A DNA stretch of 64,000 bases from assembly GCA_900545265.1 (NCBI GenBank), contig UQYI01000001.1, positions 4,145-68,144 of the forward strand, in the 5' to 3' direction. Made by a program: the position numbers and the translations under genes. The notes under the pieces are model-generated. The model did not search any database and was not told the origin of the DNA. It saw only the letters and a list, made by a program, of their open reading frames with translations. Of the stretch, positions 1-21,019 are shown one piece after another (the first letter of the stretch is position 1; the number at the start of each line of letters is the position of its first letter). This stretch comes from an uncultured Eubacteriales bacterium. GTDB taxonomy: Bacteria; Bacillota; Clostridia; Christensenellales; CAG-138.

Positions 1-3000
1 GGCGAACGCGGTTTGGTACAATCATTATGCACCAACACGCTTGTGTCGCCGACATAATAGGTGTGGAAGCCCTCGACCTCGAAATTGTAGACTGTGATCG
101 GCTCTTCGAGCAATTCATGCTCGACCGCTTCGACCACCACATATTCGCCATTGCTCTTAACGAGGATATCGCCTGCACGCAGGTCGATTGCATCGATCCA
201 GCCCTTTTGCGGCTGATAGAACGGGTGCGTGGGGGTTGTGGTAACGGTTGTTCCACCGTATTGCAAATGGACCAGTTCATCCGTCTCATTCACAAAGGTT
301 TGGACTACCCGTTTATATCCACTTTCTCCTGTCTCGGGGTCTGAAGCATAGACAAGGTCTCCCTCAGATATCGACTCAATCGGCACCTGCCCCGCAGCTG
401 TCAAAACCGCCGTCCCCGCAACAAAGCACACTCCACCCTTTATACCGATATAGGCAGTGCAGAGGAAGGTGCCGACCTCGGCTACTGTTGCTATCACATC
501 GCGTTGTTTTTCGTAGGCGGCCTTATCGCCTCTAAAAAAAGCATCCCGCATGAAATTCTGACCATCATTGGAGGTATCATTCGTAGCAGTAAGTCCCTCC
601 TGCACTTCCGCTATGCCATTTGCAACGGTTACAATACCAGTTGTTGTTGTCGCAGCAGCAACAGCAACCATGATAGGGGCTGCAGCGCCGCAAGTCAAGA
701 TCGTGGCACCGATAGCAACGGCTGCTAATCCGATGGAAAGCAAGCTCGCACCCGAGAAAATATTGGAAAATGAGAGACTACCCGACGGATCATAATTCGT
801 TGTAGGGTTATTCAAACAATAGGCATACATATTGTAACCCAGTACACCCTGGCCTGTTGAACTCAACGTGTCGGCTGACAAATAGCGACCAACCGTTGGG
901 TTGTAATAACGGCTCAGAAGGTAGTACCAGCCCGTTTCTTCATCATATACGTAACCATGGTAACGGAACGGGTTCAATGCGCCGAGTGTACTTGCCATGC
1001 TGCCGGTAGTTGTGCAAACGCCCCATGGATCATACGAATAGCTGACAACAGTACTGCCATTCCCATCGATTAACTTTACGATACTGCCCTGACCATCGCG
1101 CAGGTAGTAATAATACGTCCCGTTATAATCAACCGCAACAACATTGCTCTGATCATCATAACTGAATAGGAGCTTGTTAATGCCGTCATACGTCCCCATC
1201 AAAACATTACCGTTGTAATAATACTGTGTGGTCGCTGTGTCGATGGTCTTTGTTTGGCGAATGCCATCCTTATCATAGGCATAGGAAATATTGCTACCAA
1301 CACCCGTGAGCTGCAGACCATTCCAAGACAACGACTGTCCCAAATAGACGGTCGGGTTGCCGCTTGTATCGTATACAATGGACTGGCCATTGTAGCTGGT
1401 CAGTTGATCCGACCAGCCTTCCGTTGCGTAACCGTACTGGATTGTAGATGTTGCCGTGCCAAGCTCGTCGGTCGTATATGGATACAAGGTTTTCGATGTA
1501 AGGTTTCCATTGCCGTCATATGCATAAATTGCTGTATAACTGTCGGTACTGCTGTTATAGATATTTGCACGAACGAGTTGATTGGCCGCATCGTAGACAT
1601 AGGAAGATGCAGTCGATCCCTGTGCCACCGACAGGATATTGTTATTTGCATCATAGGTATAGGAGTAGGCATCATCAGTACCATTCCGATATGTATCGAG
1701 CAGAATCGAGGAAGAACCGTTTACTCCATTTTTATAGGATACGTTGATCGAATACGGAGTTGAAAGCCCTATCTGCTTGCTTTGAACTCGACCAATAGCA
1801 TCGTAAGAATTTGTAAGGACTACTCCATTTTCGAGGGTTGTTGTCAGCCCATGATTGTCCTTGTCGTAGGTATAAACCATCGACCAAGAAGAGCCGGCAA
1901 CACTTTGCTGAATCCTAGAGATGTTATTGTTCGCATCATAATGATAGAGATATGTCGATACTACAGTTCCATATGTTAACGAGTTGGAACTGCCAGTAAA
2001 GGTTTTTTCGATCGAAGCGATACAACGACCAGAATGATCGTATTCGCGAAATAGCGCCCGATTGTTCAAATAGTTTCGTTCTTCATATAACTCTCCATCG
2101 CCATTGTAAACATATTCGTAAGCAGTTGCATAAGATGTACTACCCGGAAGTTTTTGTTGAACCGCAATCAATCTGTCCAAATTGTCATATGAATATTTGA
2201 CAGCAAATCCATTTCCATACTCAACCTCGGAAAGCAAGCCGGCACTATTAAAGACATTGGTCGAAAGAGAAAATTCCCCTACTGCCAGCCCAAGCGACCG
2301 TCCCCAAACATCATAGCTGTAATTGTAACTCGTACCTCCACGGGAAATCGACTGGATTTCTCCATTCGTTGTATAAGAATAGGTGATCGGGTTGAGCCCC
2401 TCAGTTGTGATAGTCTGTAATCTGCCATAGTTTGCAGGAGACCCGTATGTATAGGTTGTCGTATTATTTCTTGCATCTGTGATAGCAGTCCTCGTACGCG
2501 AGACGGGATCGAGTGTATAAGTAACTGTATTTCCAGAAGCATCTGTTTCGTTAATTGCAATACCGGAGGCGCTGTCATACGTGGTCGTGGTGCGGATATA
2601 GTCCGCTTCAGTGCCGACCTTGGTTTCGGTCGCAAGGCCGAAATCATTATACGTGTTGGAGGTCACAACGCCCTCGGGGGAGGTGCTCGTGAGGAGGTTG
2701 TGCTTGCTGTCATAGGTATAGGTGGTCGTGTTCCCACGCGCATCCGTCATGCTCGTGAGATTGTCGTTGCTGTCATACCCGAAGCTGTTCTGCTGCCCGA
2801 TCAGCGAGACCGTGCCGGAAAGGTTGCCGTTGCTGTCATAGCTGTAGCCGGTGGCAAACTGCTCCTTGTGCAGCTGGAGACCATCGACATAGAGGACATT
2901 CAGGGAATCGGTGTACTCCACCACGATCTGCATCTGCGCATACGAGCTGGTAGCCGTGACCGTGCCGCTGGCAAACTGCCACTCGTCCGTATCCGCCGCA

Positions 3001-6734: not shown

Positions 6735-6840
6735 GTTTCCTCTCCCATGTTCTGTTTTTGCTTCGGTCTCCAGTTTCGATCGTGCGTAGAAATGACTCTT
6801 GATGACTTGTGAATATGTTATATCATATCTATACAGTTTT

Positions 6841-6931: not shown

Positions 6932-6967
6932 AACAACGAAAACAGAGTGGCAACGATGGCCACTCTG
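6932..6967 (-). terminator. Rho-independent terminator separating the orphan-cassette operon from RHS-1
   Basis: Minus strand reads CAGAGTGGC-catcgtt-GCCACTCTG followed by TTTTCGTTGTT: a perfect 9-bp stem plus a U-run. Confidence 0.65.
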
Positions 6968-7095
6968 TTCAGAATTGTGGTGGTATTTGGGATGGTGCAA
7001 TTTGCCAACCAGAAAACATAATGCAAAGCTATTGCAAGTTCTTACACTATGTTCCCGCAAATCAAATACTGGCCATCTCGTTGAACTGGTCGCAA

Positions 7096-7175
7096 TTATA
7101 GCTCTTTGATCACTGCGCCGTTACCGTCAACAATCATCGTCACGCTGCCGCGGATATCGTACCGGTAGAAGGCAT
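7096..7175 (-). pseudogene. Vestigial RHS core fragment (scar)
   Basis: Reverse translation AFYRYDIRGSVTMIVDGNGAVIKEL-stop matches the YFFYRYDIRGSVTNIVDGEGSIVKSY segment of RHS-2 and the orphan at both DNA and protein level. Only ~25 codons remain and there is no start codon. Confidence 0.6.
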
Positions 7176-7230: not shown

Positions 7231-8682
7231 TTAAATAAAGTCGATGGTATAGTCCCCCTCATGCATACGCGGGGCGCACCGCTCATACCGCTCCTGCAGC
7301 ATCTGCTTGATGTCGTACGGGTGCCGGTAATCCCGGTCCCAGATCGTGTCGCTGCAATCCGGCGTCAGCTTCAGCCGCCGCTTGATCAGTTTCAGGTTTT
7401 CCTCATACGTCCGATGCAGCCGCTCCTCTATCGCCACCTCGTCCCGATTCTTCAGCAGCAGGTATTCCTCCCGTTTGTTCTCCTTCGCCTCGATCACGCG
7501 CTCCATCCCCTCGTAGTCGTCCCAGCCGCGCACGCCTGGCGTCGGACGGGAAACGGAATATCCGCTTGCATCTCGCAGCGTCTTATGCCACAGTTCCTCA
7601 TACATCCGGAAAAAGCAATACTGGTTGAATACGACATTTACCGGCTCTCTCAGCAGTTTATAGTTCTCTACCGTCGGCGGCCTCCATTCACGCTCCGATG
7701 CCTGTTTAGAACAATCGTACCGTCTGTAATAGACAAACGTCCACCATTGGATCTCCATCACCGCGTCCCGCACGTTGGTGATCCTGCGCAGCATCGGTTC
7801 CACCACCTGGCCGAATATCTCCTCCACCGTATACCTTGTCCATTTGGTTAGGTGGAGATCGTCGCAAGAAAAAATATAATGAACCGAACGCGAATCATGA
7901 CGCCAGTCCTGCATTTTATTGGGCGTATCTTGAACTCTCATGACATACGGCAAACTCTCCAATTTTTCGGTCATAAAAGAGTCCAAATATGGCATGAAGG
8001 TTGGCTGAATGCTAATCAACATGTTAAATAATCCGTTATATGGCACCAGTCCGAACGATAGCAGCACCTCGTCGCGGATCAGCTTATACCACCTGTGGTA
8101 CTGGAACGTCGTAAACCCCAGTGCCGCCATCCGTTCCCCAAAGGTTTCCTGCGCATATGCATCCAGTCGCTGCGAAGCGGTCGGCTGCTTTCGCTTGTGC
8201 TTCCGCTCGCGTTTGTCGGCCTCCATCTGCTCTGCCAGCTCCGCGTCCGGCAGCAGCGGCAGCTTGAGATACGCCGCCAGTTCCTCGATCTGCTGCATCG
8301 TGTCCAGCGGGACGTCCATCATCAGCCGCTCCAGTGTCGCGCCGCCCGCGTCTTCTACGCCAAATGCCGCTGTGATCTGCGCCATGTTCTGCGGCGTTTG
8401 AGAGAGTCCTTCATCCAGCGATGACACACCGCCAGCCACCGCGTTGCCGCCCCGATAGAGCGCCAGCGCCACCGCATCTTCATCGAAACAGTAAAAGGCC
8501 AGCACGTCTATGCCGGTCTCGCGCGAAAGCGTCTCTGCATCCGCATACAAGATAAGCGGATTGTCCCAGTCGGGGTCATACACGCTGACCCGCCCATCCT
8601 GTTCCCTGCGGTGTGGGTTTGCAGCCTGCTGCTCCTTCGTCAACGTCCCCATCAAGTGCAGACTCCCGATCGTCAGTCCCAT
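7231..8682 (-). CDS. Hypothetical 483-aa cytoplasmic protein, candidate immunity partner of the orphan toxin
   Basis: Track ORF 7231..8853 trimmed to MGLTIGSLHL, which is preceded by AGAAAGGAGCGGAGAAAC (RBS). This start removes the overlap with the upstream gene. No signal peptide or TM segment and no motif I recognise. It sits directly 3' of a toxin cassette. Confidence 0.7.
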   Translation of the reverse strand: MGLTIGSLHLMGTLTKEQQAANPHRREQDGRVSVYDPDWDNPLILYADAETLSRETGIDVLAFYCFDEDAVALALYRGGNAVAGGVSSLDEGLSQTPQNMAQITAAFGVEDAGGATLERLMMDVPLDTMQQIEELAAYLKLPLLPDAELAEQMEADKRERKHKRKQPTASQRLDAYAQETFGERMAALGFTTFQYHRWYKLIRDEVLLSFGLVPYNGLFNMLISIQPTFMPYLDSFMTEKLESLPYVMRVQDTPNKMQDWRHDSRSVHYIFSCDDLHLTKWTRYTVEEIFGQVVEPMLRRITNVRDAVMEIQWWTFVYYRRYDCSKQASEREWRPPTVENYKLLREPVNVVFNQYCFFRMYEELWHKTLRDASGYSVSRPTPGVRGWDDYEGMERVIEAKENKREEYLLLKNRDEVAIEERLHRTYEENLKLIKRRLKLTPDCSDTIWDRDYRHPYDIKQMLQERYERCAPRMHEGDYTIDFI

Positions 8683-8767: not shown

Positions 8768-10018
8768 TTAAAACATACGGAACGCCATAGTATTCCACCA
8801 TCTGCCGCCTCCGCCCATGGATAACCCATATCCCGGAGAATATCCGGTTGCATAGCCCGGCACGGCTGCGCCTTGCTTCTCTGGGGGGATGATCCCTATC
8901 GGAGGAATGATCGGTATGCTCCTCGGCGCCTTTACTTCGGAAGGACTATCCTCCCGCGCTTGTTCTCGCGCAGGTTCTTGTTCGGCTTGCCAAAAGGCAT
9001 ACTCTATTACTCCTGGGATTGTACTCCAGTATTCTACATTAAAAACACTATTATCCTCTGTTTTCATAACGGTTTGCCCTTGGAACTGTGTTGTTGACGG
9101 ATGCAATGGCGCCTTTACATCGATCTTTGAACTCACGACTGTCGCCCCTGTATATCGACTCAACTGCATGAGCGCCAAAGCTCTGGGTATCATCGGAAAA
9201 TTATCATTATGATGCTTTACTTCCCAAATTTCTCCTGTTTCCAGATTAAGAAGATCTACTCTTCCACGCCTTCCATTTGAGCAAGTCACCACTTTTTCCA
9301 TCACTATATTTAAATCTGTCTCCGCAATACTCACTTGTACAGCGTTATGGGCGTCCCTGTAAACTGCTATACGCTTCTTCCAGGGCCAGAAAAGCCAGCC
9401 TTTTGGATAACTCGTCTCGGCTTCATGTCCCGTCGGGTCGACCATGTTGACGGGGTTGTTGTTGCAGTAGGCGTAGAGGTGCTGCGTCCAGGGGACGGAG
9501 GCAGAGCCGGTGTAGCTGTCCTGCGAGAGGAAGCGGGCGGTGGCGGGGTTGTAGTAGCGTGCGTTCATGTACAGAAGGCCGGAGGCGTCCGCTACGCTCC
9601 CCGTGAACGTCACCTCGTTGAAGAACGTGTCCCCCGTGCTGGTCGTCACGCCGAACTCGTCGTAGTCGTAGCTCTTGACGATGGAACCCTCGCCGTCCAC
9701 GATGTTTGTCACGCTGCCACGGATATCGTACCGGTAGAAGAAGTAGTCGTCCGCGTACGGGTCCTGCCCGGTGGCTGCCTGCCCCTCAAACCGCTTGCTC
9801 GCCACGATCGTGCCCGACGGGTCGAGGATGTTCTGCGTCTGCAGCACGTACTCGTTCACCGTCGTGAACAGCAGGGCGCTGCCCGAGTAGTAGAAGTGCG
9901 TAACGACCTCGTCCTGCACGCGCGTCACGCGCTGCCCTGCGCAATACGTCCTTGCGCCGGTCGGCAGACAGATGCGCCTGCCGACCGGCACAGGGATTCC
10001 ATTCAAGTTGTTCGTCAT
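8768..10018 (-). CDS. Orphan RHS C-terminal cassette: core remnant plus PD-(D/E)xK-like toxin tip
   Basis: 416-aa ORF with its own ATG. The first ~195 aa are near-identical to the last core segment of RHS-2 (THFYY.GSALLFTTVNEYVLQTQNILDP...ARYYNPATARFLSQD...YAYCNNNPVNMVDPTGH). An unrelated 218-aa tail follows (8771-9424), containing GRVDLLNLETGEIWEVK (D-x10-E-x-K). Confidence 0.8.
   Translation of the reverse strand: MTNNLNGIPVPVGRRICLPTGARTYCAGQRVTRVQDEVVTHFYYSGSALLFTTVNEYVLQTQNILDPSGTIVASKRFEGQAATGQDPYADDYFFYRYDIRGSVTNIVDGEGSIVKSYDYDEFGVTTSTGDTFFNEVTFTGSVADASGLLYMNARYYNPATARFLSQDSYTGSASVPWTQHLYAYCNNNPVNMVDPTGHEAETSYPKGWLFWPWKKRIAVYRDAHNAVQVSIAETDLNIVMEKVVTCSNGRRGRVDLLNLETGEIWEVKHHNDNFPMIPRALALMQLSRYTGATVVSSKIDVKAPLHPSTTQFQGQTVMKTEDNSVFNVEYWSTIPGVIEYAFWQAEQEPAREQAREDSPSEVKAPRSIPIIPPIGIIPPEKQGAAVPGYATGYSPGYGLSMGGGGRWWNTMAFRMF
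9429..9942 (-). repeat. Direct repeat, copy 1 (RHS core 3' segment, orphan)
   Basis: Hand alignment to 12491-13005 gives about 40 differences in ~515 nt, with a ~120-nt block showing no differences. The repeat ends exactly at the codons for VDPTGH. Confidence 0.85.
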
Positions 10019-10020
10019 GC

Positions 10021-10135: not shown

Positions 10136-10144
10136 GTATCTTGC

Positions 10145-10875
10145 CTATGGCATATACAGTTCGGCGTATCCAAGCAGCTCCTCGTCATTGAAAAGCAAAT
10201 TGGCCCCTGGCAAAAAGCCGACATACTCCTGTTCCAGTAGGAGAAAAAAGCAGTCTCGCGTAGCGACCGTTTCCCCCAGTCCCACCAGACGATCAACAGC
10301 GCGCTTTCCGCAACCCGTAACGAGAGCACCTCTTCGCTGATGGACTCTTTCGGAATGTAAGGAACGCCATCGTCCATTGCAAATTCCCCTATTGCAATGT
10401 TGACGATATGGCTCTCGGCGTCAAAAGACCGCACAATCCCCGGCGCCTCTGTCAGCGCGCGATTTCCTGCCGCCAAGTCCGCTTTGCAAGCGTCCTACGG
10501 AATGCTCATCGGATGCAGCTTCGCCTGCGAAGACTGCAAATCCATCTGATAGCGGCAGCCATAGGCAAAGCCGGAATCTCGATACGATAGCTCGCCCAGG
10601 CAATACTTCTGTGTATCATCCTGCAGGTAAACCAGCTCATGCCCCTCCGTTGCAGACTCCTCAAGCGTAATCGAGCACGCAGTCGGATCGTTCGACCACT
10701 TGTCACCCAGATCATAGCAAAGTCCAAATCCATCCAGCCAGAAAACGATGTCGCACCCGTACCTTTCTCCTGCTGTGATCTGAATGTCTGCAGGATTCGG
10801 CTTTCCCTGCCGCGGCGCGCAGGAGAGGGACAAAGCGGCACAGCAGCAGACGAGCGCCAAAAGAAGCTTTTTCAT
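10145..10875 (-). pseudogene. Decayed paralogue of the 10994-11794 lipoprotein (N-terminal 126-aa ORF still intact)
   Basis: ORF 10495..10875 has lipoprotein signal MKKLLLALVCCCAALSLSC and shares the motif G.DI..W.(D/G)(G)FG.CYDL with the upstream lipoprotein. It ends at TAG 10495-10497, and the same frame stays open afterwards. After a frameshift near 10300 the reading ...AVDRLVGLGETVATRDCFFLLLEQEYVGF...LYMP-stop resembles ...RDILLGLMERGYFET of the intact paralogue. Confidence 0.5.
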
Positions 10876-10993
10876 GGAATACCCTCATTTTTGTTGTCGT
10901 TGCGATCGTTGTAACGGGCAAATTCCGCATGCGCGGCGCATGGAGCGGCATGTTCGTCTTCCAACGCGTAGCGGCAGCACCCGGCGCCGTCGT

Positions 10994-11794
10994 TTAAGGG
11001 TTGCAGATCTCCACCACCAGCCTGATCTGATCCCCTTCTATAACAAGCCAACACGGCGTTTCAAAATATCCCCGTTCCATCAGGCCCAGTAAAATATCCC
11101 GTTTGACCAGCATATTGGCAATGTTTTCATCAAAACAGCTTATGACGCCTAGCGCCTGCTCCTGCAACGCGCACTGCATCTGCTCTTTCTGTACGTCTTT
11201 TTCAATCCAGACCGCATCCGACAATACCATGTCACATTCCGACACATAAATCTGGCCCTCTTGCTCAGAGGCAGAAACCACTCCGCCAATTCTGCGCTCC
11301 CAGTCATCGTACAGCGCTATGGGCGTACAAGGCAAAAGATCGGCTTTTATGTCATAGTAGGTATAAAAATCATAGTAGACGCCATAGCGGTTCGGCTTGC
11401 TGTAAGTCCTCAACAGTCCAATGCGGTATCGCCTGTCCCCGTGACGCAACCAAACCGGATATCCGTAACCTGCCGGTTCCTGATAATCCAGCAGCGGATG
11501 TCCCTGCTCAAGCAATCGGTGTTCATCCTGACAACCATCCAGAAAAACGTCTTCTCCAATTTCTATACTGCATGCCTGCAGGCAAAAAGCCTCTTCATCA
11601 AGATCATAGCAAAATCCAAAATCGCCAATCCAGCAAATGATATCACGCCCTACCTCATCACCGGAACAAACAGATACTACAGGCAACGCACCGTTTGCTG
11701 TTGGCTCGCGATTGTGCTCTCCCAATTCAGTTGAAGAACATGCGACTGTCATTACAATTGTAACAAGAATGAACAGACATACGATTTTCTTCAT
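10994..11794 (-). CDS. Lipoprotein, candidate immunity protein for the NlpC/P60 tip of RHS-2
   Basis: Track ORF 10994..11812. The likelier start is MKKIVCLFILVTIVMTVACSS (lipobox VAC) with AAGAGGA 8 nt upstream. The alternative ATG at 11812 overlaps the RHS-2 stop by 1 nt (TAATG). The gene is immediately 3' of the toxin gene. Confidence 0.75.
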   Translation of the reverse strand: MKKIVCLFILVTIVMTVACSSTELGEHNREPTANGALPVVSVCSGDEVGRDIICWIGDFGFCYDLDEEAFCLQACSIEIGEDVFLDGCQDEHRLLEQGHPLLDYQEPAGYGYPVWLRHGDRRYRIGLLRTYSKPNRYGVYYDFYTYYDIKADLLPCTPIALYDDWERRIGGVVSASEQEGQIYVSECDMVLSDAVWIEKDVQKEQMQCALQEQALGVISCFDENIANMLVKRDILLGLMERGYFETPCWLVIEGDQIRLVVEICNP

Positions 11795-11811
11795 GATTGT
11801 ATCCTCTTTCA

Positions 11812-14800
11812 TTACCCGCTATATCTGGCGTATCCTAAAAATTTTGCATTTTCGTTACCACCGTACATTTGATAATTTTCAACTGGTCTGAATGCTACTC
11901 CACCGCCGGATTCTGTTGCGTCTATCATATACCCATCACCAACATACACCGCAACATGGCAGGGACGACCCTCTTGCTTGGTCCAATAAATCAAATCCCC
12001 CGGAATCAAATCATCGGTAGTAAAGCTGTTTGTTTCGTAAAATTTCCATTTTTCATTGGCAGCTCCAAACTCTCCCGGGTTGTCACGTTTTAAATAATGC
12101 ACCTGTAAACGAGTGGTATTTGGAAAGCTAATATCCCCACTTGAATGAACCGCTGCTGCTACCAGTTCTGAACAATCCATGGTTCCAGGGGTTCGAACAT
12201 ACCTCTGTTGCGTAGCATCATATGGGGAATAAGGTGTTCCCAAATATTGGGCAGCAGTTTCAATCCATTGTAATGCTACAGTAGACGCCCCGGAACTTTT
12301 GGCCACCTGGATTGCTTTTTCACCGTCCGTTACTGCCCCTGCTGTCGGACTGGGAGTTGGGACCACCTGCATTCTTACAGGTGTAGGCTCCGGTTTCTCT
12401 GTAGGTTCCGGCTCGGGAGGTTGGTTACTACATCCTGTAGTAGCTGCCGTCACCAATGCAATCAATATAACGACCAGCCAGGAGGAATGCCCCGTCGGAT
12501 CGACCATGTTGACGGGGTTGTTGTTGCAGTAGGCATACAGGTGCTGCGTCCAGGGGGTAGAGGCGGAGCCGGTGTAGGTATCCTGCGACAGGAAACGGGC
12601 GGTGGCGGGGTTGTAGTAGCGGGCGTTCATGTAGAGCAGGCCGGAGGCATCCGCTACGCTACCGGTGAAAGTAACCTCGTTGAAGAACGTATCGCCCGTG
12701 CTGGTCGTCACGCCGAACTCGTCGTAGTCGTAGCTCTTGACGATGGAACCCTCGCCGTCCACGATGTTTGTCACGCTGCCACGGATATCGTACCGGTAGA
12801 AGAAGTAGTCGTCCGCATACGGGTCTTGCCCGGTAGCCGCCTGCCCCTCGAACCGCTTGCTCGCCACGATTGAACCCGCCGGGTCAAGGATGTTCTGTGT
12901 CTGCAGCACGTACTCGTTCACCGTCGTAAACAGCAGGGCAGAGCCCGTGTAGTAGAAGTGCGTAATGACCTCGTCCTCCACGCGCGTCACGCGCTGCCCC
13001 TGCGCGTTGTACGCATACGTCGCGCTCGTCGACAGCGGGATCACCGCGTTGTTCGAGATGTTTGTAGAGGTCAGCCGGTTCGCCAGATCGTAGCCATAGT
13101 TCGTGGTCGTCGTCACGCCCGTGCCCGTCTGCACCTGCTGCGTCTGGTTCCCCCGCGCGTCATAGGTGTAGGTCGTCACCGCCGTGCCCTGCTGCACCCG
13201 CGTCAGCTGGTTCAGGTAGTTGTAGGTATACGTCTCCGCCGTCTCCGTGCCCTGCTGCCGCGTGAGCCGGTTCCCCACCGCGTCGTACGTATACGTCGTG
13301 GTCGTCCCGTCGTACGCCGCCGAGATCAGGCGGTTGCCCAGGTCATACTGGTACGTCCGCGTCTTCATCGTGCTGCCGCTGTACGCCTCCGTCACCGCTT
13401 CGGTCAGGATGTTCCCGTTCCCGTCGTACGTCAGGTTCGTCTCCTCCCGCACCGTCCGCGTCTCCCCGTCCACGTCCGTATACGTCAGCTTCACCGGCAG
13501 GCCGAAATCGTTGTAGGTATATGCCAGTTCGGTTGTCAAGGTGCCGCCGGTCAGGAACGACGTGTTGTCCGTGACCGTCTCGATATCCCCATAGGCGTTA
13601 TACGCATATGAGCGGATCAGCTTCTTGTTGCTTGTTGGGGAGGTTGTGCTTGCCGAGCCCGCATCCAGATAGATCGCAGAGAGCCGCCCATCAGCATCAT
13701 AAGTATACCACAGGATGTGCAGCTCCGTATTGCCGGGATTGAACGAGCCCTGCGCGCTCTCCTTCGCGTATGAGATCGCCGTGACCTGCCCCGCGCTATT
13801 GTACCGGTAGTTCACTGCCAGCGCCCCGGCCTCCGCCTCCGTCTCCTGCCGCTGCTGCGTCACCCGCCCGTACTGGTCGTACGAATACGCCGTGGTCACG
13901 CTCTGCTGCGTCTCGCCGCTGCCGGTAATCTGCACCGCGCTCTCCAGACGGCTCCCACCATTGCTATAGGCGTAGGAGATGGCGATCTCCGGCGCTTGTG
14001 CCGATGCGGAGGCAAAGTACTGCTCGCTCACGACGTTGCCCACCGCATCGTAGGCATACCGCACGACGCTGCCGTCCTCCCGTGTGACTGACGTTACCTG
14101 CCCGTGCGCATCGTACGTATACGCCGTGGTCATGCTCTTCGTCGCGTCGTCCGGGTCGGTCACCACGTCGCGCAGCTTGCGCCCGCTGTTATCAAACACC
14201 GTGGTGGTTGTTACGCCTTTTGCGCTGGTCACAGCATTCGCCACCCCGCCGGTTACGCTCTGGTCGTAGGCATAGGCCGTCGTGGCCGTTACGCCAGAGG
14301 AGAGCGGCTGGCGCACCTCAGTGAGGCGGGAGAGAGCATCGTAGGTATAGGTGGTGGTGGTACCGCGGCCATCGGTGACGGAGGTGTTGTTACCCAACAT
14401 ATCATAGGCCGCCGAAGTTGTCAAATCAGCCGATGGGACATAACCGGAAAGCCTCTCGCCGTGACTGCCCAGCTTTGTACGGTTTGCTGCGGCAACGGCC
14501 GCTGTCAGCGTTCGATTGCCCAGCGCATCGTACTCTGCACGCACGACTCGATTGCCCGTTGCGCCTCCGAGAGTCTCCACCACGGTCTGGTTGCCCATGT
14601 AATCGTAGCGGTAGACGACCGTCATGCCTCCGCCAGTTTGCTGGACGGCACGGCCGTTTTGATCGTACCATGTGGTGGATGTGCGTTCCTCAGGATCGGT
14701 CACGGTCACGCGGCGCACGCCGTAGCTATCGCTGCCCAGATAGGTGTAACTGGTCGTCAGCGCTCCGTTGCCCGAACCAATGCGGGCGGTGCTCACGCGC

Positions 14801-17800
14801 CCCATACTGTCATAGGTATAGGTGGTGACCACACCCTCCACATCGCGTGCGGTCAACGCAAGACCCGCCACGGAATAGGTGTACGCTTCGTACGCGCCAT
14901 TTGCATATGTTTTCTTCGTGAGCAGGCCGCGCCAGTCGTATTCGTATGCTACGGCATCCTCCATTCCGTCTGTCGCCGCTGTAGCGGTGCGGCCATAATC
15001 GTCATACGTATAGCGCACGACAGAGAAAGGCGTCTGCCCCGCGCCGTTGGCGCTCGATATGGTGGTCACGCGGCCCTTGGCATCGTAAACATACGACACA
15101 TATCCGCCGTTGCGGTCGGTCGTGGCGATCAGATAGCCATAGTCGTTGTAGGCGTTCGTGGTCATTTTGCCGGCAGGATCGACAGCTGTCAGCACCTGCC
15201 CGGCAGCATTATAAGTATAGGTTGTGGTCTGGTAACTGCTGCCGTTTTTGACCTTGACGGTTTTGGGCTGATTATACTGATAGTTCTGGTAGAGCGTTTC
15301 TCCTAAGAGCGTATCCCCCTGCGTGATCGCCATGCGCGTCAGGTCGCGCGTCGTTTCATCGTAGGTGTAGCTCTGCACGATGGGCGTTTCGCTTGCTGCG
15401 CCCTCCACGAGGTTGGTGTAGCTGACCGAAGCAAGCAGCAGATCGTCGGTATAGGTGTAGTTGATCGGATGACCGTCTGCGTCCTCACACCGCGTGATCA
15501 CTCCGGTCGCGGGAACGTAGGTATAGGTGGCAACGGTGTATGCTGCATCATCCCCGATCTTTGTCTTGACGGTGGTGGTAGCTGCGCTGTATGCAAATTC
15601 GGCAGCCTCCTGCCCGCCTGGGTACGCTATGCCAACCAGTCGGCCAGCATTATCATACGTCAGTGTATAGACCCGGTTGTCCGGATTCTTGATCGTGGAG
15701 AGGCCATTCTCCGAATAGGTGAAGATTTCGGTATACCCGCTATTGCCGGAGAGCGCGTGGGTGGCTGAAATGAGCCGGTCCTGTGCATCGTAGGCATAGG
15801 TATAGGTGATACTGGGCTGGTCGCCCTCCGTGCTTGTCCAGGTGAGCGACTCGAGCATATCGATATGCTCGTTGACATACAAGTAATCCACCTCGTTGGG
15901 AAGCACTTCTTCGTAATTTGTGGCTTCCGGTGCTCTGCTTGCCCGCGTGGATGGGCTTGTGCGCTGCACCTTGTAGGTGAGCGTCAGCTTGTCACCAACG
16001 CTGTTTGCCACTTCCACGACATTGCCACGCGCATCATACGTAAGCGTTAACGCTGCACCGGCAAGGTTGGTGAAAGATTTCAAACGCATAGTCTGCGCGT
16101 CGAAATGGTAGGTGATGTTGTCCTTGCGCGTGATCGTGTATTCGGCTGGTGCATCCGCCGTGGCTTCGATATAGGCAAGCACCATCCGTGTACCGGGCGC
16201 GCTTGCATACGTGCCGTCCTCCTGCAGCGCAAAGCGGTGTAACGAACCATCGCCATCCTTGAGGATCAAGCCCACTTCTGTTCCGATCGAATCGTATTCG
16301 CGCATCAGTACAGTATTGAACGAATAATCCCACCCCACGCCGAGCGCCGTCTTGCTTGTCGTCTGGCTGTTGAACGTACGCCGCATGGCCATAGCAAAAA
16401 ATGGATCGGCAACCACGAGATCGCTCGTTTGATATACCACATTGCCGTTGGCAACGTTGACATACCCTGCGCCACTATCCGTGCTGAACTGAGCATAACT
16501 CCAGTAATCCTGCAGTCCCAACTGCTTCTCCAGCTCATCCTCATCCACAACAGTGCCAACCACCTGATTCGTTGGTTCGCTAACACGCCCATTCTTTACA
16601 GCGGCGACAAGATAATAGAATGTCTTGCCATAGTTCAGGTTGAAGTCCGACCAATTGCAATCGGTCAGTCCACTGGCGACAAGTGTACTGTTGGAAAGGG
16701 TGAAATACGGAGTTTCGCTACGGTAGACGCTATATGTCACACCTTCGGTTTCGGATGGAGCCCAGCGCAGCACAGTCAAGTTGTTTGCGCCTGAAAAGGC
16801 GGAAAGATTGTTTGGTGGGTCAATCAGTGAGACCGTCTGCGCTTCACCCGGCATGGCAGCACGTACCTCCAGCGACCAGCTGCTGAGCACAGGTTTTTCA
16901 CCGTCTGCATTCGCCTCGAGCGTGGCACGAAGCACAATTTCCTCTCCTCCGGCTGTGACAGCGTTCCAAGTGCTCTGGTCATCAGCGGCTACGGTAGGAA
17001 CGGCCTGCCAGGTTGTGCCACCATCCGTTGATAGATGATAGGTGATGCCTGCACCATCCGGGATGCTGGCGTCCACGATCAGACGAGTTGCCTCAGCCTC
17101 GCCGGCAAGCAGACGGCGGGTGCTCTGGACGGTACCGGACTCGCTCGCATTTGATAGCGTTAGACCGCCGCTTTCGAGAACCTCCGTGTTGTTCAGTTCG
17201 GTAAATCCACGCGCATCTGTCAAAAATGCAGTCTGAATTAGTTCGCTGGAGCCATAGAAGATATAGCGGGTTTCCGCATAGATTTGGTCGATCGTCGGAG
17301 ATGCTGTGGCGGTGCCCTTTCCCAACGTAGCGCGTATACGTACGCTGCTGCTGGTGTTGCTGCCGTACAGATACAGCCGGTTCGCTTTTGTAACGGTTAC
17401 ACCGCCATCCGTGGAAACCGGCGTAATTGTCTGCCATGTATCGCCATCCACCGAAATCTCATATCCTATCGACGAACCAGATGGTACCGTCTGGTTGACG
17501 ATCAGATCAATATAGGAAATCGTACCGCTTAGCGCAAGTACAGGAGTGATAAGCATGCCGCTTTCGCCCGTCAGTGCTGCAATGCCGTCGGTGACTGCTA
17601 CACCATCAAGCGTGAAGCCGCTGGTTCCATTCGCTGGCAGAAAGAGGTGCTGCTTTTCGTAAGTTGAATGGCTATAGACTGGTTCACCTGCTTCGTCGAA
17701 GGCCATGACATAGAGATAGTGTGTGGAACCTTCAGCAAACCCTGACGGGAGTGTGAAGGACAAGCCGGGCTCGTCCTCTGTCTGAGTATCTCGTACCACA

Positions 17801-18228
17801 TTATCCACTACAAATTTTGCTCCGCTATATATCGCGGTATCGGAGGAATCGGCCTTTGTATAGGTTGCCGCCCATGTACCGTTCGCAGAGTCAGTCTGAA
17901 TCGTATGCGTCAGCCCTGCATCGACCTGCCGGCTACCCTCGGCCTTGGTCCAAGTCGCCGTTTGGCTGGCTGTGTTGCCCGCCTGATCCCATGCGGTCAA
18001 GGTCAACGTATACGTCTGCTCATTGTCGAGTCCGGTGATGTTCCAGCGTGCAATAATCGCATCCGTTAGCGTTGTCGTGCCGGTTGCAATTGTTGTTTTT
18101 TTCCGTAGAAGTTCCTGTCCCGAGATGATACTCCAGTTTCCATCCGGAAAAATCATTTGCGTTTGTGGTAATTGTCGCGCGTACCTGCACAATCCCACCC
18201 GTGTCCGAGACGACAGTCGGGCCCGCAA
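11812..18228 (-). CDS. RHS/YD-repeat body of RHS-2 with C-terminal NlpC/P60 domain (5' part displaced by frameshift)
   Basis: 2138-aa ORF with dozens of YD repeats (YTYD, YAYD, YEYD...). Core end LYMNARYYNPATARFLSQDTYTG...YAYCNNNPVNMVDPTGH, followed by a 224-aa tip. The first ~45 listed residues (MRARLSSRTRVGLCRY...) look out-of-frame. The real sequence joins the 18020-20536 ORF at the A7 run. Confidence 0.9.
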   Translation of the reverse strand: MRARLSSRTRVGLCRYARQLPQTQMIFPDGNWSIISGQELLRKKTTIATGTTTLTDAIIARWNITGLDNEQTYTLTLTAWDQAGNTASQTATWTKAEGSRQVDAGLTHTIQTDSANGTWAATYTKADSSDTAIYSGAKFVVDNVVRDTQTEDEPGLSFTLPSGFAEGSTHYLYVMAFDEAGEPVYSHSTYEKQHLFLPANGTSGFTLDGVAVTDGIAALTGESGMLITPVLALSGTISYIDLIVNQTVPSGSSIGYEISVDGDTWQTITPVSTDGGVTVTKANRLYLYGSNTSSSVRIRATLGKGTATASPTIDQIYAETRYIFYGSSELIQTAFLTDARGFTELNNTEVLESGGLTLSNASESGTVQSTRRLLAGEAEATRLIVDASIPDGAGITYHLSTDGGTTWQAVPTVAADDQSTWNAVTAGGEEIVLRATLEANADGEKPVLSSWSLEVRAAMPGEAQTVSLIDPPNNLSAFSGANNLTVLRWAPSETEGVTYSVYRSETPYFTLSNSTLVASGLTDCNWSDFNLNYGKTFYYLVAAVKNGRVSEPTNQVVGTVVDEDELEKQLGLQDYWSYAQFSTDSGAGYVNVANGNVVYQTSDLVVADPFFAMAMRRTFNSQTTSKTALGVGWDYSFNTVLMREYDSIGTEVGLILKDGDGSLHRFALQEDGTYASAPGTRMVLAYIEATADAPAEYTITRKDNITYHFDAQTMRLKSFTNLAGAALTLTYDARGNVVEVANSVGDKLTLTYKVQRTSPSTRASRAPEATNYEEVLPNEVDYLYVNEHIDMLESLTWTSTEGDQPSITYTYAYDAQDRLISATHALSGNSGYTEIFTYSENGLSTIKNPDNRVYTLTYDNAGRLVGIAYPGGQEAAEFAYSAATTTVKTKIGDDAAYTVATYTYVPATGVITRCEDADGHPINYTYTDDLLLASVSYTNLVEGAASETPIVQSYTYDETTRDLTRMAITQGDTLLGETLYQNYQYNQPKTVKVKNGSSYQTTTYTYNAAGQVLTAVDPAGKMTTNAYNDYGYLIATTDRNGGYVSYVYDAKGRVTTISSANGAGQTPFSVVRYTYDDYGRTATAATDGMEDAVAYEYDWRGLLTKKTYANGAYEAYTYSVAGLALTARDVEGVVTTYTYDSMGRVSTARIGSGNGALTTSYTYLGSDSYGVRRVTVTDPEERTSTTWYDQNGRAVQQTGGGMTVVYRYDYMGNQTVVETLGGATGNRVVRAEYDALGNRTLTAAVAAANRTKLGSHGERLSGYVPSADLTTSAAYDMLGNNTSVTDGRGTTTTYTYDALSRLTEVRQPLSSGVTATTAYAYDQSVTGGVANAVTSAKGVTTTTVFDNSGRKLRDVVTDPDDATKSMTTAYTYDAHGQVTSVTREDGSVVRYAYDAVGNVVSEQYFASASAQAPEIAISYAYSNGGSRLESAVQITGSGETQQSVTTAYSYDQYGRVTQQRQETEAEAGALAVNYRYNSAGQVTAISYAKESAQGSFNPGNTELHILWYTYDADGRLSAIYLDAGSASTTSPTSNKKLIRSYAYNAYGDIETVTDNTSFLTGGTLTTELAYTYNDFGLPVKLTYTDVDGETRTVREETNLTYDGNGNILTEAVTEAYSGSTMKTRTYQYDLGNRLISAAYDGTTTTYTYDAVGNRLTRQQGTETAETYTYNYLNQLTRVQQGTAVTTYTYDARGNQTQQVQTGTGVTTTTNYGYDLANRLTSTNISNNAVIPLSTSATYAYNAQGQRVTRVEDEVITHFYYTGSALLFTTVNEYVLQTQNILDPAGSIVASKRFEGQAATGQDPYADDYFFYRYDIRGSVTNIVDGEGSIVKSYDYDEFGVTTSTGDTFFNEVTFTGSVADASGLLYMNARYYNPATARFLSQDTYTGSASTPWTQHLYAYCNNNPVNMVDPTGHSSWLVVILIALVTAATTGCSNQPPEPEPTEKPEPTPVRMQVVPTPSPTAGAVTDGEKAIQVAKSSGASTVALQWIETAAQYLGTPYSPYDATQQRYVRTPGTMDCSELVAAAVHSSGDISFPNTTRLQVHYLKRDNPGEFGAANEKWKFYETNSFTTDDLIPGDLIYWTKQEGRPCHVAVYVGDGYMIDATESGGGVAFRPVENYQMYGGNENAKFLGYARYSG
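11815..12279 (-). other. NlpC/P60 cysteine peptidase domain (toxin tip of RHS-2)
   Basis: YLGTPYSPYD...GTMDCSELVAAAV (catalytic Cys context) ...GDLIYW...CHVAVYVGDGYMIDA (catalytic His context). It is preceded by a Pro/Glu/Thr linker and the hydrophobic segment SSWLVVILIALVTAATTGC (12430-12486). Confidence 0.8.
12491..13005 (-). repeat. Direct repeat, copy 2 (RHS core 3' segment, RHS-2)
   Basis: See 9429-9942. Same orientation, 3062 bp apart. Confidence 0.85.
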
Positions 18229-20536
18229 TTACTGGTGCGATGATGTCGCGCTGATATGGTGTGGAAGAGCACTTTGCTGCACCAATGTTGCCCGCTGCAT
18301 CCTTGGCTCTGACCCACACGTACTGCGTACCAACAGCTGGCTCGGTGAGCGTATGTGTAAGCGCGTTGGAAGAGGGAAGATCTGAGAAGGATTCGGGTGC
18401 CGTAGTGTTTGAAGTGCTCAGCGCGTATTGGTAGATAACAGCCGAGGCATCGCTTGCAGCCGTGTGCGTAACGGTAACATTGCCGGTTGTCCAAGTAGTC
18501 GGTGAGACCGTCACACTGCTGGGTGCTGTGGGCGGTGTCAGATCGCCAACCGTAATCGTATTTGACACGGCATATTCGGAGCTGCCCACGCTGTTCTTTG
18601 CACGAACTTTTGCATAGTAGGTTGTGTTATCATTCTGGTTTGAAAATGTATAGCTGGTTCCTGTTCTGCTGACTGTCTGTACAAGCGTTCCCGCACGGTA
18701 TAGCTGCACATCATAACCGGTCGCGCCGGACGCTGCGCTCCACGATACGGTGATGGTAGCCTTTGTACCATTCTGCGTGTAAGCAGTTGTTATAGCTGTC
18801 GGCGCATTGGGCGCAGAGTTATATGTGACGACCAGCTTGGGCCTGTTTGCTGTGGTCGCGCCTTCGGTCGATGTAAAACGCTTGTAACGCGCTTCGGTCT
18901 CGTTCGGTATTTTCATGACGAATTTGCGTAGCTTACTGCTGTTGCCATACCATTCTTGCACCTTCGCCGTCATATCCCAGCTATAAGAACCGATGTTTTT
19001 AACCACCGTGCTGGAAAAATGCGTTGATTCAAAGGAAGGTTGTGTATTCCATGTCACAGTAGTAATGGAGAAGTTTGAAGTCACCTGATGCAGCCGTACC
19101 GATGGCGCGGAATTACCGGCATATTCCTCGTAGCAGGTCAAAGTCGCACCGGTGATCTGTTTGTTGGTTCCAATGGCGGTGATGAGGCTGGTAAAATCAA
19201 AGTAAACGCGTAACCGGTCGCCATTGGACATACAGCCCATCTTCAGGCCGGTCTCGGTATGATAGTTCCTAGTGCCACTGTATTGATCTGTCACATGTGT
19301 ATCCGCAATGTAGTTTGCACCACTATAGGTGGCCGAGGGATCTAATGATACTGGATACACGCGATCGCTGCTTGTCAACCATTCGCGATTCGGCGTAAGC
19401 GTGTACAGATAGCTTCCGCCCTCCAGAAGTTCGAGCTTTACATCAATGTCGTACGAAAAATTACAGTCTATATCTGATGAATCATACATCACTGGTGCTG
19501 GGATTGCGGCGACAATCTCTGCTGTGCGGCTATCAACCAAATAGGTATTGCCGTCCTCACGAAGCAAGGGTACCAGACCGCTCAACGTCAACAGAAAAGA
19601 GAAGCTGGCCTGCGTTGGAATCGAAAGAAACACAATATCTTCTTTCAGACCATTGCCCGTTGGCGTCAATACCAAGTCAATGTTGTTGCCATACACGTTC
19701 TTATAGCGTAGGCTACTATATGTTGAACGACTCGCTTCGGCATCTCCGTTCATACTGAAGATGCTGCTTCCATCAGCAAGATAACGTATATCAAAGGCAT
19801 TCAACGGCAAAAGGCCGTTTTGCGGTACCGGTGCAAGCGAAATTGAGCGACCGTCACGGCTTAGCGTTACAAGCCGGTTTTCGGTGATTGTTGTTTGAAA
19901 ATCTATGCGTACCGGCGACTTGGCGCTCGTAAGCGTCTGGAGACCATCTTGTGATCCCACTGTGATTTCAGGCTCAATCATGCGCCACTTGCCGCTGGAA
20001 GTCTTGTAACGGACGGGCGAGAGGTATAGCTCAACCGTGCCGCTTCCATCCTCATCTTCATTACGGATGATGTATGCCTCGAGATCTTCTGCGGTTAGTT
20101 CCGGTTGCAGTTCGAGCAACTCTTCATACTCGGCCATGGTTATAACATCACGCTCTTGCTTCGTGCCAGAAAACAGAGAGATACGTGTATCGATCTGTTC
20201 TTCTTCTAACTGCAATCCATCTTGCGATGTAATAGATGCATCTGGAAGGGAGGATGATTCTACGGCTTCTTCGCCATCTTCATCCGATTGTCCCGGCACC
20301 GTTTCTGACGGTTCCGCGACCGATTCAGCTTCTTCTCCTTGTGATGCTGGAGCGGATTCGTCCTCTGATGGCTCTGAAGTTGACAAAGTTATATCATTAA
20401 AAGACTCCCTTGCCACATTGGGTGAACTCATCTTTCCTGTGCTCAACGCCAATGCTGTTGCAGGTGAAATAATGTATCCTGACAAGAGAAAAACTGCAAC
20501 CAGAAACACACTCAGCGCTCGCCTGAACCCCTTCAT
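18020..20536 (-). CDS. N-terminal module of RHS-2: signal peptide, acidic linker, DNRLRE-type domain, FN3/Ig-like repeats
   Basis: 838-aa ORF. Signal MKGFRRALSVFLVAVFLLSGYIISPATALA. VYPVSLDPSATYSG...GDRLRVYFDFTSL...TVTWNTQPSF (DNRLRE-like). Then PNAPTAIT...YYAKVRAKNSVGSS and PPTAPSS...YVWVRAKDAAGN FN3-like units. The last ~25 residues (EKNNNCNRHDNANGCDYCTLEHHRTRQ) look like out-of-frame read-through. Confidence 0.85.
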   Translation of the reverse strand: MKGFRRALSVFLVAVFLLSGYIISPATALALSTGKMSSPNVARESFNDITLSTSEPSEDESAPASQGEEAESVAEPSETVPGQSDEDGEEAVESSSLPDASITSQDGLQLEEEQIDTRISLFSGTKQERDVITMAEYEELLELQPELTAEDLEAYIIRNEDEDGSGTVELYLSPVRYKTSSGKWRMIEPEITVGSQDGLQTLTSAKSPVRIDFQTTITENRLVTLSRDGRSISLAPVPQNGLLPLNAFDIRYLADGSSIFSMNGDAEASRSTYSSLRYKNVYGNNIDLVLTPTGNGLKEDIVFLSIPTQASFSFLLTLSGLVPLLREDGNTYLVDSRTAEIVAAIPAPVMYDSSDIDCNFSYDIDVKLELLEGGSYLYTLTPNREWLTSSDRVYPVSLDPSATYSGANYIADTHVTDQYSGTRNYHTETGLKMGCMSNGDRLRVYFDFTSLITAIGTNKQITGATLTCYEEYAGNSAPSVRLHQVTSNFSITTVTWNTQPSFESTHFSSTVVKNIGSYSWDMTAKVQEWYGNSSKLRKFVMKIPNETEARYKRFTSTEGATTANRPKLVVTYNSAPNAPTAITTAYTQNGTKATITVSWSAASGATGYDVQLYRAGTLVQTVSRTGTSYTFSNQNDNTTYYAKVRAKNSVGSSEYAVSNTITVGDLTPPTAPSSVTVSPTTWTTGNVTVTHTAASDASAVIYQYALSTSNTTAPESFSDLPSSNALTHTLTEPAVGTQYVWVRAKDAAGNIGAAKCSSTPYQRDIIAPVIAGPTVVSDTGGIVQVRATITTNANDFSGWKLEYHLGTGTSTEKNNNCNRHDNANGCDYCTLEHHRTRQ
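18096..18102. repeat. A7/T7 homopolymer at the RHS-2 frameshift
   Basis: Plus strand has ttttttt; the coding strand reads GGAACTTCTACGGAAAAAAACAACAATTGC. With A6 the reading becomes GTSTEKTTIATGTTTLTDAIIARWNITG, which continues the Ig-like domain into the 2138-aa frame. Confidence 0.85.
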
Positions 20537-20994: not shown

Positions 20995-21019
20995 GTTAGG
21001 GATGAAAGGAGACCCGGGT

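Follow-up and report, generated by a model that had tools for sequence, protein, structure and literature searches.

The window analysed here, a stretch of 64,000 nucleotides (contig UQYI01000001.1, positions 4,145 to 68,144), comes from an uncultured human-gut Clostridia bacterium and carries a chromosomal island built around two giant RHS genes, referred to below as RHS-1 and RHS-2. ENA scaffold LIJU14-1_SAMEA2338653_METAG-scaffold_10 carries the sequence of the window with 100% identity. From base 1 to approximately 20.5 kb, the long open frames lie on the minus strand, and the island (G+C 0.48-0.58) resembles the rest of the window in base composition. According to the reading order, RHS-2 is followed by an intact lipoprotein gene, a decayed lipoprotein paralogue, an RHS-body scar, an orphan core-plus-tip cassette, a partner gene of 483 amino acids (aa), a second RHS scar, a terminator-like hairpin and, finally, RHS-1. 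A first-pass annotation had listed these elements on the same strand, and all of them were found in place by hidden Markov model (HMM) scans against Pfam and NCBIfam, which were used for domain calls, and by BLAST within the window, which was used for repeats and remnants. Signal peptides and lipoboxes were judged by inspection, a hydropathy scan and a PROSITE-like pattern.

Both giant proteins share the same general architecture. Their N-termini start with MKAFKR and MKGFRR, continue into a hydrophobic core and an AxA-like site, and thus have the look of Sec-type signal peptides, as the earlier annotation had claimed. The HMM scans that it had proposed as a check detected YD repeats, DUF6531, the RHS core, DNRLRE/CBM96, PT-HINT and NlpC/P60 domains. 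YD repeats were matched with E-values of 2.6e-57 in RHS-2 and 1.7e-24 in RHS-1 by PF05593, and of 4e-37 and 1.1e-17 by TIGR01643 (YD_repeat). The Rhs-associated core (TIGR03696, cut-off 32.5 bits) scored 70.8 bits in RHS-2, 72.1 in RHS-1 and 75.5 in the orphan cassette, and the DNRLRE domain (NF033679, cut-off 34) scored 93.6 bits in RHS-2 and 83.4 in RHS-1. The core profile matches the solved shells of Rhs, TcC and teneurin proteins. Motifs holding the two autoproteolysis aspartates are present in both cores (LSQD...VDPTGH in RHS-2 and LSAD...YDPSG in RHS-1), and the core ends differ, with NMYAYCLNNPTTNYDPSG in RHS-1 versus HLYAYCNNNPVNMVDPTGH in RHS-2. The module sets also differ, since fn3 and immunoglobulin (Ig)-like domains are added in RHS-2 and two inserted beta-sandwich domains in RHS-1. 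In agreement with the earlier claim that markers of the type VI and type VII secretion systems (T6SS and T7SS) are missing, no PAAR, VgrG, LXG or WXG domain was detected in either protein by Pfam at E <= 0.01. No DNA similarity exists between RHS-1 and RHS-2 and their protein identity is only about 25-30% in BLAST within the window; they are therefore regarded as old paralogues.

RHS-2 as encoded (20536..11812, minus strand) consists of two overlapping open reading frames (ORFs). The first, of 838 aa (20536..18020), contains the signal peptide, an acidic linker, the DNRLRE/CBM96 domain and fn3/Ig-like repeats and ends prematurely through a frameshift. The second, of 2138 aa (18228..11812), contains Ig-like domains, the DUF6531 plug, the YD-repeat shell, the Rhs-associated core ending in DPTGH, and the tip. 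The two ORFs overlap by 209 nucleotides (nt) in different frames and meet at a run of seven A residues (A7, 18096..18102), in which allele comparison identified a 1-nt insertion (+1 frameshift). When one A is deleted from this run, a continuous ORF of 2907 aa results. The relative L012 has A6 at the same run, reading ...GTGTSTEKTTIATG..., and an intact allele of 2902 aa (P0055), found by exact-sequence cluster look-up and 96-97% identical, reads through in the same manner. The 838-aa ORF is 96% identical to residues 1-813 of P0055, and the 2138-aa frame, which has no other interruption, shares 97% identity with the working allele. The frameshifted 838-aa product was found on 3-5 contigs (NCBI, ENA, Logan), which may have a single source sample; no match to the flanks of the A-run was obtained in a JGI metagenome scan. 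Programmed ribosomal frameshifting of the -1 type at the A-run was considered and rejected, as the shift needed is +1 (or -2) and the -1 frame, followed by hand, meets a stop. The earlier statement that both RHS proteins are full-length consequently holds for RHS-1, which is uninterrupted in the window, but not for RHS-2. Because of the frameshift, the shell and tip of RHS-2 are encoded without a signal peptide, and RHS-2 in this strain is most likely a recent pseudogene, which would likely leave RHS-1 as the sole active weapon. The N-terminal module of the repaired RHS-2 is rare: a word-indexed protein search, which did not recover the query protein itself, gave 7 distant matches, the best with 42% identity.

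The tip of RHS-2 (224 aa, 12486..11815) is composed of a leader, a Pro-rich tether and an NlpC/P60 domain at about 11875-12192. With scores of 44.9-48.6 bits against a cut-off of 23 (PF00877), and with the motifs DCSELV and HVAVYVG supplying the catalytic Cys and His, it is firmly predicted to be an NlpC/P60 peptidase domain. The tip opens with SSWLVVILIALVTAATTGC-SNQPPEPEPTEKPEPTPVRMQVVPTPSP, of which SSWLVVILIALVTAATTGC comprises a hydrophobic helix and a lipobox-like Cys at position 19. This leader module stands directly after DPTGH. Its hydrophobic helix of about 15 residues leads into a lipobox, the invariant Cys19 and the Pro-rich tether, so that the module resembles a lipoprotein signal peptide minus the charged n-region. 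A near-identical leader fronts two other papain-like domains, which are 37-48% identical to the domain of the RHS-2 tip. Three diverged leader variants in total precede three different papain-like domains; two of them, SALLIALLVAITVVTLTGC and NPLLISLLVAITAVILTGC, keep the hydrophobic run, and in both the Cys of the PROSITE-like lipobox core is residue 19 counted from DPTGH. A homologous NlpC/P60 tip behind an RHS-1-type core (P0010) has no such leader, which is thus not obligatory. No description of such a leader was found in the literature searched, which, like the four passages on 'lipobox' in PMC3482391, deals only with immunity proteins or with anchors at the N-terminus.

RHS tips of other Clostridia commonly have hydrophobic helices right behind the core, and so does that of RHS-1, but those have no lipobox. 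Among the Clostridia RHS loci L019-L052, many tips begin with one or two strongly hydrophobic post-core helices. Such helices may represent a pre-toxin feature that is general among monoderm RHS toxins but has gone undescribed, and they are hard to square with simple Sec export of the whole protein. Several tips of types other than NlpC/P60 (L012 11615-11700, 13073-13150 and 17511-17590; L054 166-240) share a second leader class behind the cleavage site, in which xMRPxTVNI(N/E)DGGGGRY is followed by a Pro-rich linker ending in PEITEETH. Its GGGGR[YW] motif is found again in the orphan-tip tail described below.

The intact lipoprotein gene (272 aa, 11812..10994, minus strand) has a PROSITE-like lipobox, and its start overlaps the RHS-2 stop by 1 nt. 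The encoded protein has no Pfam or NCBIfam match. Homologues of 266-272 aa travel with the NlpC/P60 tip in L002, L005-7 and L060-62, the lipoprotein cluster has 194 members, and in the loci compared the gene after an NlpC/P60-type tip is always that of a lipoprotein. The 272-aa protein is accordingly put forward as a candidate extracytoplasmic immunity protein for the NlpC/P60 tip, the location being read in this way because the tip would act outside the membrane. Downstream, the decayed paralogue (10875..10069, minus strand) is present as two out-of-frame ORFs, 10875..10495 and 10476..10069 (126 + 135 aa). Its lipobox is recognised by pattern and hydropathy, and its kinship to the intact 272-aa gene is also seen in BLAST within the window. 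The decay noted previously was borne out by comparison with an intact 275-aa lipoprotein of L055 (L055_2792-3619), as the two ORFs match its residues 1-130 (40% identity, E 1e-30) and 164-246 (E 1e-8). The L055 lipoprotein comes after a different NlpC/P60-type orphan, and the decayed gene is, as far as its sequence tells, the leftover immunity gene of a different NlpC/P60-type cassette.

Next to this gene lies a fragment of a YD shell, the RHS-body scar (10121..10022, minus strand; 82% identity to 13631..13532, E 1e-21), and then the orphan core-plus-tip cassette, a 416-aa ORF at 10018..8768 on the minus strand. Its core repeat (9942..9425) matches the RHS-2 core at 12487-13005 over 519 nt with 92% identity (E 0). 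Behind the 483-aa gene, a second core scar (7171..7069, minus strand) is 75% identical to 12701-12802 (E 5e-13), with a protein-level match extending to 7221. The E-values of these repeats and scars (0, 1e-21 and 5e-13) exclude chance. A terminator-like hairpin with a 12-bp stem and 6 GC pairs, identified as a pattern match alone, lies between the RHS-2 array and RHS-1 (6970..6940, minus strand).

Apart from the core, no other recognisable domain is present in the orphan ORF. Its tip (9424..8771) belongs to a rare family, with 4 clusters in a set of 5.8 billion sequences and 31 representatives in an exhaustive search, 28 of the 31 located directly after an RHS core end. The same family serves as the working tip of the intact RHS-2 allele P0055. 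It matches no toxin family of Pfam, including the Tox-REase models in Pfam-A. The family alignment displays conserved residues H26, E43, GRxD57, W67-E68-x-K70, Q87 and Y91. An AlphaFold2 model from a 32-sequence alignment has a predicted local distance difference test (pLDDT) score of 90.5 and an alpha-beta-beta-beta-alpha core; a 5-sequence alignment gave a pLDDT of 34, and the result was taken from the larger alignment. Weak Foldseek matches of the model are enriched in Cas4, R2 endonuclease, AbaSI, Holliday junction resolvase and DUF559, and the tip-family profile matched sequences in PDB only through the RHS core part of the alignment. From the motifs, the topology and these weak matches, the tip is provisionally, and probably, a PD-(D/E)xK nuclease.

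The Pro/Gly-rich tail of the orphan tip is conserved and ends in ...GGGGRWWNTMAFRMF. This tail, IPIIPPIG...GYSPGYGLSMGGGGRWWNTMAFRMF (8771-8920, minus strand; also in P0016-P0019 and P0055), is more conserved than the catalytic domain, and its DNA overlaps alternative-frame ORFs, called as genes of 42-55 aa, and the 5' extension of a 540-aa ORF. Within that 540-aa ORF lies the partner gene (8682..7231, minus strand), whose 483-aa product has no signal peptide and no Pfam or NCBIfam match. The gene is present on at least 73 contigs, and L054 (83% identity over 52 aa) and L056-59 (481 aa) have a homologue of it behind the orphan tip family. In every compared locus with the PD-(D/E)xK-like tip, the 481/483-aa gene comes next. 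The 483-aa protein is a candidate immunity protein for the orphan tip and is read as cytoplasmic because it has no signal peptide.

RHS-1 (6734..3, minus strand) runs off the end of the window, with 2244 of its 2312 aa inside. At full length it has 2312 aa in L001 and 2295 aa in L003. According to the HMM domains, the signal peptide is followed by an acidic linker, DNRLRE/CBM96, DUF6531, the two beta-sandwich domains and the YD shell. The core ends with YDPSG at about 780, after which come two predicted transmembrane helices (about 432-779) and a PT-HINT domain (about 21-407). This domain, running from ...CFVAGT to ...LVHN with its C-terminal HN, scored 106.5 bits against a cut-off of 27.7 and covers positions 2-137 of the 137 in the profile (PF07591); the earlier description of RHS-1 as having different core-end motifs and a Hint-containing tip is thereby borne out. 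A tip of about 75 aa extends from the HN of the PT-HINT domain, its first 7 residues (DCTKPRS) being inside the window and the final 68 aa or so of RHS-1 outside it. The tip contains DAHSFK and DIFQD, which correspond to [DN]xHxxK and DxxxD, both listed as Ntox33 motifs in the table of PMC3482391. A gene of 127 aa follows the tip, beyond base 1. RHS-1 is also polymorphic in its N-terminal part: in L003, from another sample, 17 aa (VETGGQSLSWRFVGAET) are deleted in frame at about 6070 (window 6270-6316). A split of RHS-1 in L004 (831 + 1489 aa) was considered as a frameshift and rejected, as a run of N in the scaffold was found instead.

The island was compared with contigs from other samples and genomes, of which close relatives are 90-97% identical at the DNA level, and at least 5 haplotypes can be distinguished. 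The first is the window itself. The second, represented by L005-7 and the 1425-aa product P0052, is the commonest allele (52 contigs); a 4.8-kb deletion (16093..20939) removes the RHS-2 promoter region and the first 1480 or so codons (about 4.44 kb), and its junction (window 20939|16092) has a 2-nt microhomology and recurs in three samples. The third (L056-59) follows the window DNA to 12487 and resumes at 9943, so that 12486..9425, with the NlpC/P60 tip, both lipoprotein genes and the scar, is missing. On sequence grounds, L056 is an exact recombination between the 519-nt core repeats, that of the main gene and that of the orphan. As a result, an intact RHS-2 of 2902 aa in L056-59 bears the orphan tip family of the window, followed by the 481-aa partner homologue. 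RHS-1 of the same loci diverges from window position 2566 on, having a different hydrophobic tip and then a 138-aa membrane protein. In the fourth haplotype (L060-61, long-read contigs), an intact RHS-2 of 2887 aa carries yet another tip, and the NlpC/P60 tip with a 266-aa lipoprotein is one of several orphans. The fifth consists of L012, which is 'Clostridiales bacterium HRGM_Genome_3519', the nearest named record to the window, and L055, both with arrays of 3-5 orphans and further tips. By their motifs these tips appear to include an HExxH peptidase, JAB-like and papain-like domains and others, each with its own downstream gene, often for a lipoprotein; for the L012 tips and candidate immunity genes, no Pfam match was above threshold. 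In L012, the first 1670 or so codons of RHS-1 are also joined out of frame to RHS-2 at the equivalent of window 18289 (792-6035 / 5912-12199), which is either a large rearrangement or a mis-assembly of the metagenome-assembled genome.

It can be seen that more than 8 different tips stand behind near-identical cores in the window, L012, L054, L055, L056 and L060-61, each followed by its own gene. Identical tips throughout closely related strains would have argued against a diversifying locus; instead, close relatives differ in tip and immunity gene at the same positions, and since their tips are not identical the locus is considered to be actively diversifying. The mechanism fits that described for the Salmonella orphan rhs cassettes (PMC3967940). 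The HMM matches, the repeats and the recombinant haplotype are all in keeping with the earlier proposal of a tandem polymorphic-toxin island with orphan and decayed cassettes.

These findings suggest, with a probability of roughly 0.85, that the region is a Sec-type RHS polymorphic-toxin island, in which toxins are displayed on or released from the envelope, tip-immunity cassettes are swapped across the core repeats, and RHS-2 is disabled in this strain. A course of action can be proposed by drawing on knowledge of Rhs, Tc and WapA proteins (PMC3482391, PMC12704120 and the solved shells). The RHS proteins would leave the cell via Sec and be displayed or released at the monoderm surface, and the YD shell would fold around the variable C-terminal tip, as in the solved Rhs and Tc structures that match the core. 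The tip would be cut free by aspartyl autoproteolysis after DPxG, to which RHS-1 would add a HINT-mediated release, and would be delivered to neighbouring bacteria. There, the NlpC/P60 tip would cleave peptidoglycan outside the target membrane, and the orphan nuclease-like tip would act in the cytoplasm, where the 483-aa protein would neutralise it. Where the candidate immunity proteins would reside agrees with the predicted sites of action, with lipoproteins accompanying cell-wall hydrolase tips and proteins devoid of signal peptides accompanying nuclease-like or Ntox33-like tips. Homologous recombination at the core repeats of about 520 nt would shift tip-plus-immunity cassettes between expressed and orphan positions and leave scars and decayed immunity genes behind, and the retained immunity genes would still guard this strain against its kin.

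A bolder extension, which we consider rather doubtful, is that in this RHS clade the leader of the NlpC/P60-type tips works as a lipoprotein signal, which would be processed by the Lgt and Lsp of the victim. If so, the released tip would insert its uncharged N-terminus into the target membrane and be lipidated and cleaved there, and the cell-wall hydrolase would be tethered on the outer leaflet by the peptidoglycan, where lipoprotein immunity proteins sit. The toxin would then be retained by hijacking the lipoprotein maturation of its target, and the leader would represent a new 'pre-toxin' module for envelope-acting toxins of monoderms.

Several points weigh against the toxin-island reading. 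Secretion, autoproteolysis, toxicity and immunity are all inferred. A hydrophobic helix after the core should be a stop-transfer signal during Sec export, which leaves the exit of the tip unexplained, and no CW_binding, LysM, SLH or LPXTG/sortase-signal match was detected in either RHS protein by Pfam and NCBIfam to account for wall anchoring. As regards the tips, that of RHS-1 scored 20.3 bits against Ntox33 (PF15533), below the cut-off of 28.4 (E 7.7e-4), and the best Foldseek matches of the orphan tip (E 0.26 in PDB and 8.6e-3 in BFVD) fall short of significance, which is why its assignment as a nuclease is kept provisional. Neither the 272-aa nor the 483-aa partner could be matched to a known immunity family at the sequence level. 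Finally, the A7 allele is on 3-5 contigs, maybe from one sample, and may be a sequencing artefact. The opinion of the first-pass annotation that the tips cannot be confidently assigned stands in part: the NlpC/P60 tip is now firm, whereas that of RHS-1 is weakly Ntox33-like and that of the orphan is PD-(D/E)xK-like and absent from Pfam.

The A7 allele bears directly on the state of RHS-2, which might be functional here if the A7 run were an assembly or sequencing error, or a slipped-strand switch turning the gene ON and OFF by phase variation. The shift does lie inside a homopolymer, a single-base change restores the 2907-aa ORF, the long downstream frame is uninterrupted and 97% identical to the working allele, and the A7 allele is confined to 3-5 contigs that may come from a single sample. 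However, the identical 838-aa product occurs in NCBI, ENA and Logan assemblies, so that several assemblers agree, and A7 is short for efficient phase variation. RHS-2 has moreover been separately disabled elsewhere, by the 4.8-kb 5' deletion on 52 contigs and by the out-of-frame RHS-1::RHS-2 fusion of L012, and this independent disabling in other lineages argues for relaxed selection on the gene. A functional RHS-2 is for these reasons unlikely in this strain, though worth keeping in mind. The same disruptions, along with the decayed cassettes and scars, could be taken further to mean that no RHS gene is an active weapon and that the region is a graveyard kept because its immunity genes protect against the toxins of relatives. 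The wider occurrence of immunity-like genes than of toxin genes (at least 73 contigs for the 483-aa gene and 194 members in the lipoprotein cluster) would agree with this. Nevertheless, RHS-1 is an uninterrupted ORF of 2295-2312 aa in every covering contig, the split in L004 being an artefact of the N-gap, and intact RHS-2 alleles of 2902 aa (L056-59) and 2887 aa (L060-61) circulate; a region kept for immunity alone is thus improbable.

Two further alternatives concern export and target. Little credence is given to the idea that export needs a specialised system, either a T7SS or a sortase/SecDF-like helper, and not Sec alone. S. suis WapA does require an adjacent SrtB and SecF-like protein (PMC12704120), and an internal hydrophobic helix in a protein of about 2300-2900 aa makes export through Sec awkward; however, both N-termini resemble classical signal peptides, LXG and WXG domains are missing, and the immediate neighbours, in an inspection limited to 64 kb of the genome, are regulators and an Opp transporter and not secretion genes. 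A role in targeting a host or another eukaryote, or in adhesion, as in the BC components of Tc toxins or in teneurins, could be derived from the match of the core profile to TcC and teneurin shells and from the N-terminal carbohydrate-binding, fn3 and Ig modules, which could bind host glycans. It is a very unlikely substitute for an interbacterial toxin, given that no TcA-like partner is present, that NlpC/P60 acts on peptidoglycan, and that the small gene behind every tip is tightly linked to it and co-varies with it, as is characteristic of toxin-immunity pairs. Orphan arrays and core-repeat recombination are also typical of interbacterial polymorphic toxins (PMC3482391, PMC3967940). The reading as a Sec-type interbacterial toxin island with a disabled RHS-2 is accordingly preferred.

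At its left border, the island meets a divergent WYL/WCX-domain regulator (20966..21979, plus strand) that is conserved in relatives, followed by a helix-turn-helix (HTH) gene (22085-22537) and a Peptidase_M78 gene (22341-23204). This WYL/HTH/M78 trio borders the island in all haplotypes and lies beside RHS-2 in L005-7, L011 and L056-59. An Opp-type ATP-binding cassette (ABC) transporter operon comes after it in the window, and a phage-type integrase and Hypoth_Ymh genes were observed just past it in L056 (35-2103); the left flank of the island is therefore itself variable. An origin from a prophage or integrative element, prompted by the trio and the L056 integrase, was set aside, as the window has no tRNA genes and the Opp operon directly adjoins. 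One gene of this region, an OppC-type ABC permease of 650 aa (26219-28171, minus strand; OppC_N + BPD_transp_1), contains an RCC1-repeat beta-propeller of about 280 aa between its first transmembrane segment and the permease core (RCC1_2 E 1.5e-27), an unusual extracytoplasmic insertion for a peptide-transporter permease.

All defining features of the RHS polymorphic-toxin class that were looked for were found, and the island, judged from its sequence, belongs to that class. NlpC/P60 tips, PT-HINT, tips of the REase fold, lipoprotein immunity (Imm65) and orphan arrays are already described in PMC3482391, and the known paradigm is unchanged by the island. What is new here is a tip family that Pfam does not contain, along with the 483-aa and 272-aa partners, the rare N-terminal module and the lipobox-like leader. 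The locus is a well-resolved, naturally polymorphic example from an uncultured gut Clostridia lineage, in bacteria where Sec-dependent RHS weapons are far less studied than the T6SS Rhs proteins of Proteobacteria. Its set of haplotypes, with intact, frameshifted, 5'-deleted and recombined alleles and orphan arrays, constitutes a natural experiment in cassette exchange and in the loss of offence with the keeping of defence. It also offers new parts that can be tested, namely the rare RHS-specific nuclease-like tip family with its 483-aa partner, the lipoprotein immunity families and the lipoprotein-signal-like leader.

Among known systems, the Tae/Tai pairs combine T6SS effectors, which are peptidoglycan amidases belonging to the NlpC/P60-papain superfamily, with immunity proteins located in the periplasm. 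They share with the island a cell-wall-degrading cysteine peptidase as the toxin and immunity outside the cytoplasmic membrane. They differ in that the enzyme here would be an encapsulated RHS tip with a lipoprotein-signal-like leader, not free T6SS cargo, and that the candidate immunity protein is a Gram-positive lipoprotein without detectable homology to known families.

WapA of B. subtilis and S. suis resembles the RHS proteins described here in its Sec signal peptide, YD shell, Rhs-associated core, variable C-terminal toxin and downstream immunity gene. The B. subtilis protein reportedly has a tRNase tip that targets nucleic acids and is said to carry wall-binding repeats. Here, by contrast, one tip is predicted to be a cell-wall hydrolase with lipoprotein immunity, and the N-terminal module is rare. 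S. suis WapA has a DNRLRE domain in its N-terminal region, as found here, but also a LysM wall module (PMC12704120), which was not detected in this study, and no srtB or secF-like genes were found adjacent to the island among its immediate neighbours. Of the earlier designation as WapA-type, the signal peptide, DNRLRE domain and YD shell are retained, but not wall anchoring, in the absence of CWB, LysM, SLH or LPXTG; 'WapA-like' is thus a functional analogy, not demonstrated membership.

The orphan tip can be likened to Tox-REase-6 (Zhang et al. 2012, PMC3482391) in its conserved order of E, D, ExK, Q and Y, as given in the table of that paper. It is likewise RHS-linked, and the paper lists the family in Firmicutes with Sec-type export (type II secretion system). 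The orphan tip differs in matching no Tox-REase model of Pfam-A, in having a partner other than Imm49, and in its conserved Pro/Gly-rich C-terminal tail. Finally, the enterobacterial Rhs loci, exemplified by Salmonella Typhimurium LT2 (PMC3967940), similarly have a main rhs gene followed by 5'-truncated core-plus-tip orphans and immunity genes, and core recombination there puts an orphan tip on the main gene, as is seen here in the pair formed by the window and the L056 haplotype. Delivery there is through the T6SS, with PAAR or VgrG-interacting N-termini, whereas the island described here encodes Sec-type monoderm proteins from two tandem, unrelated RHS paralogues.

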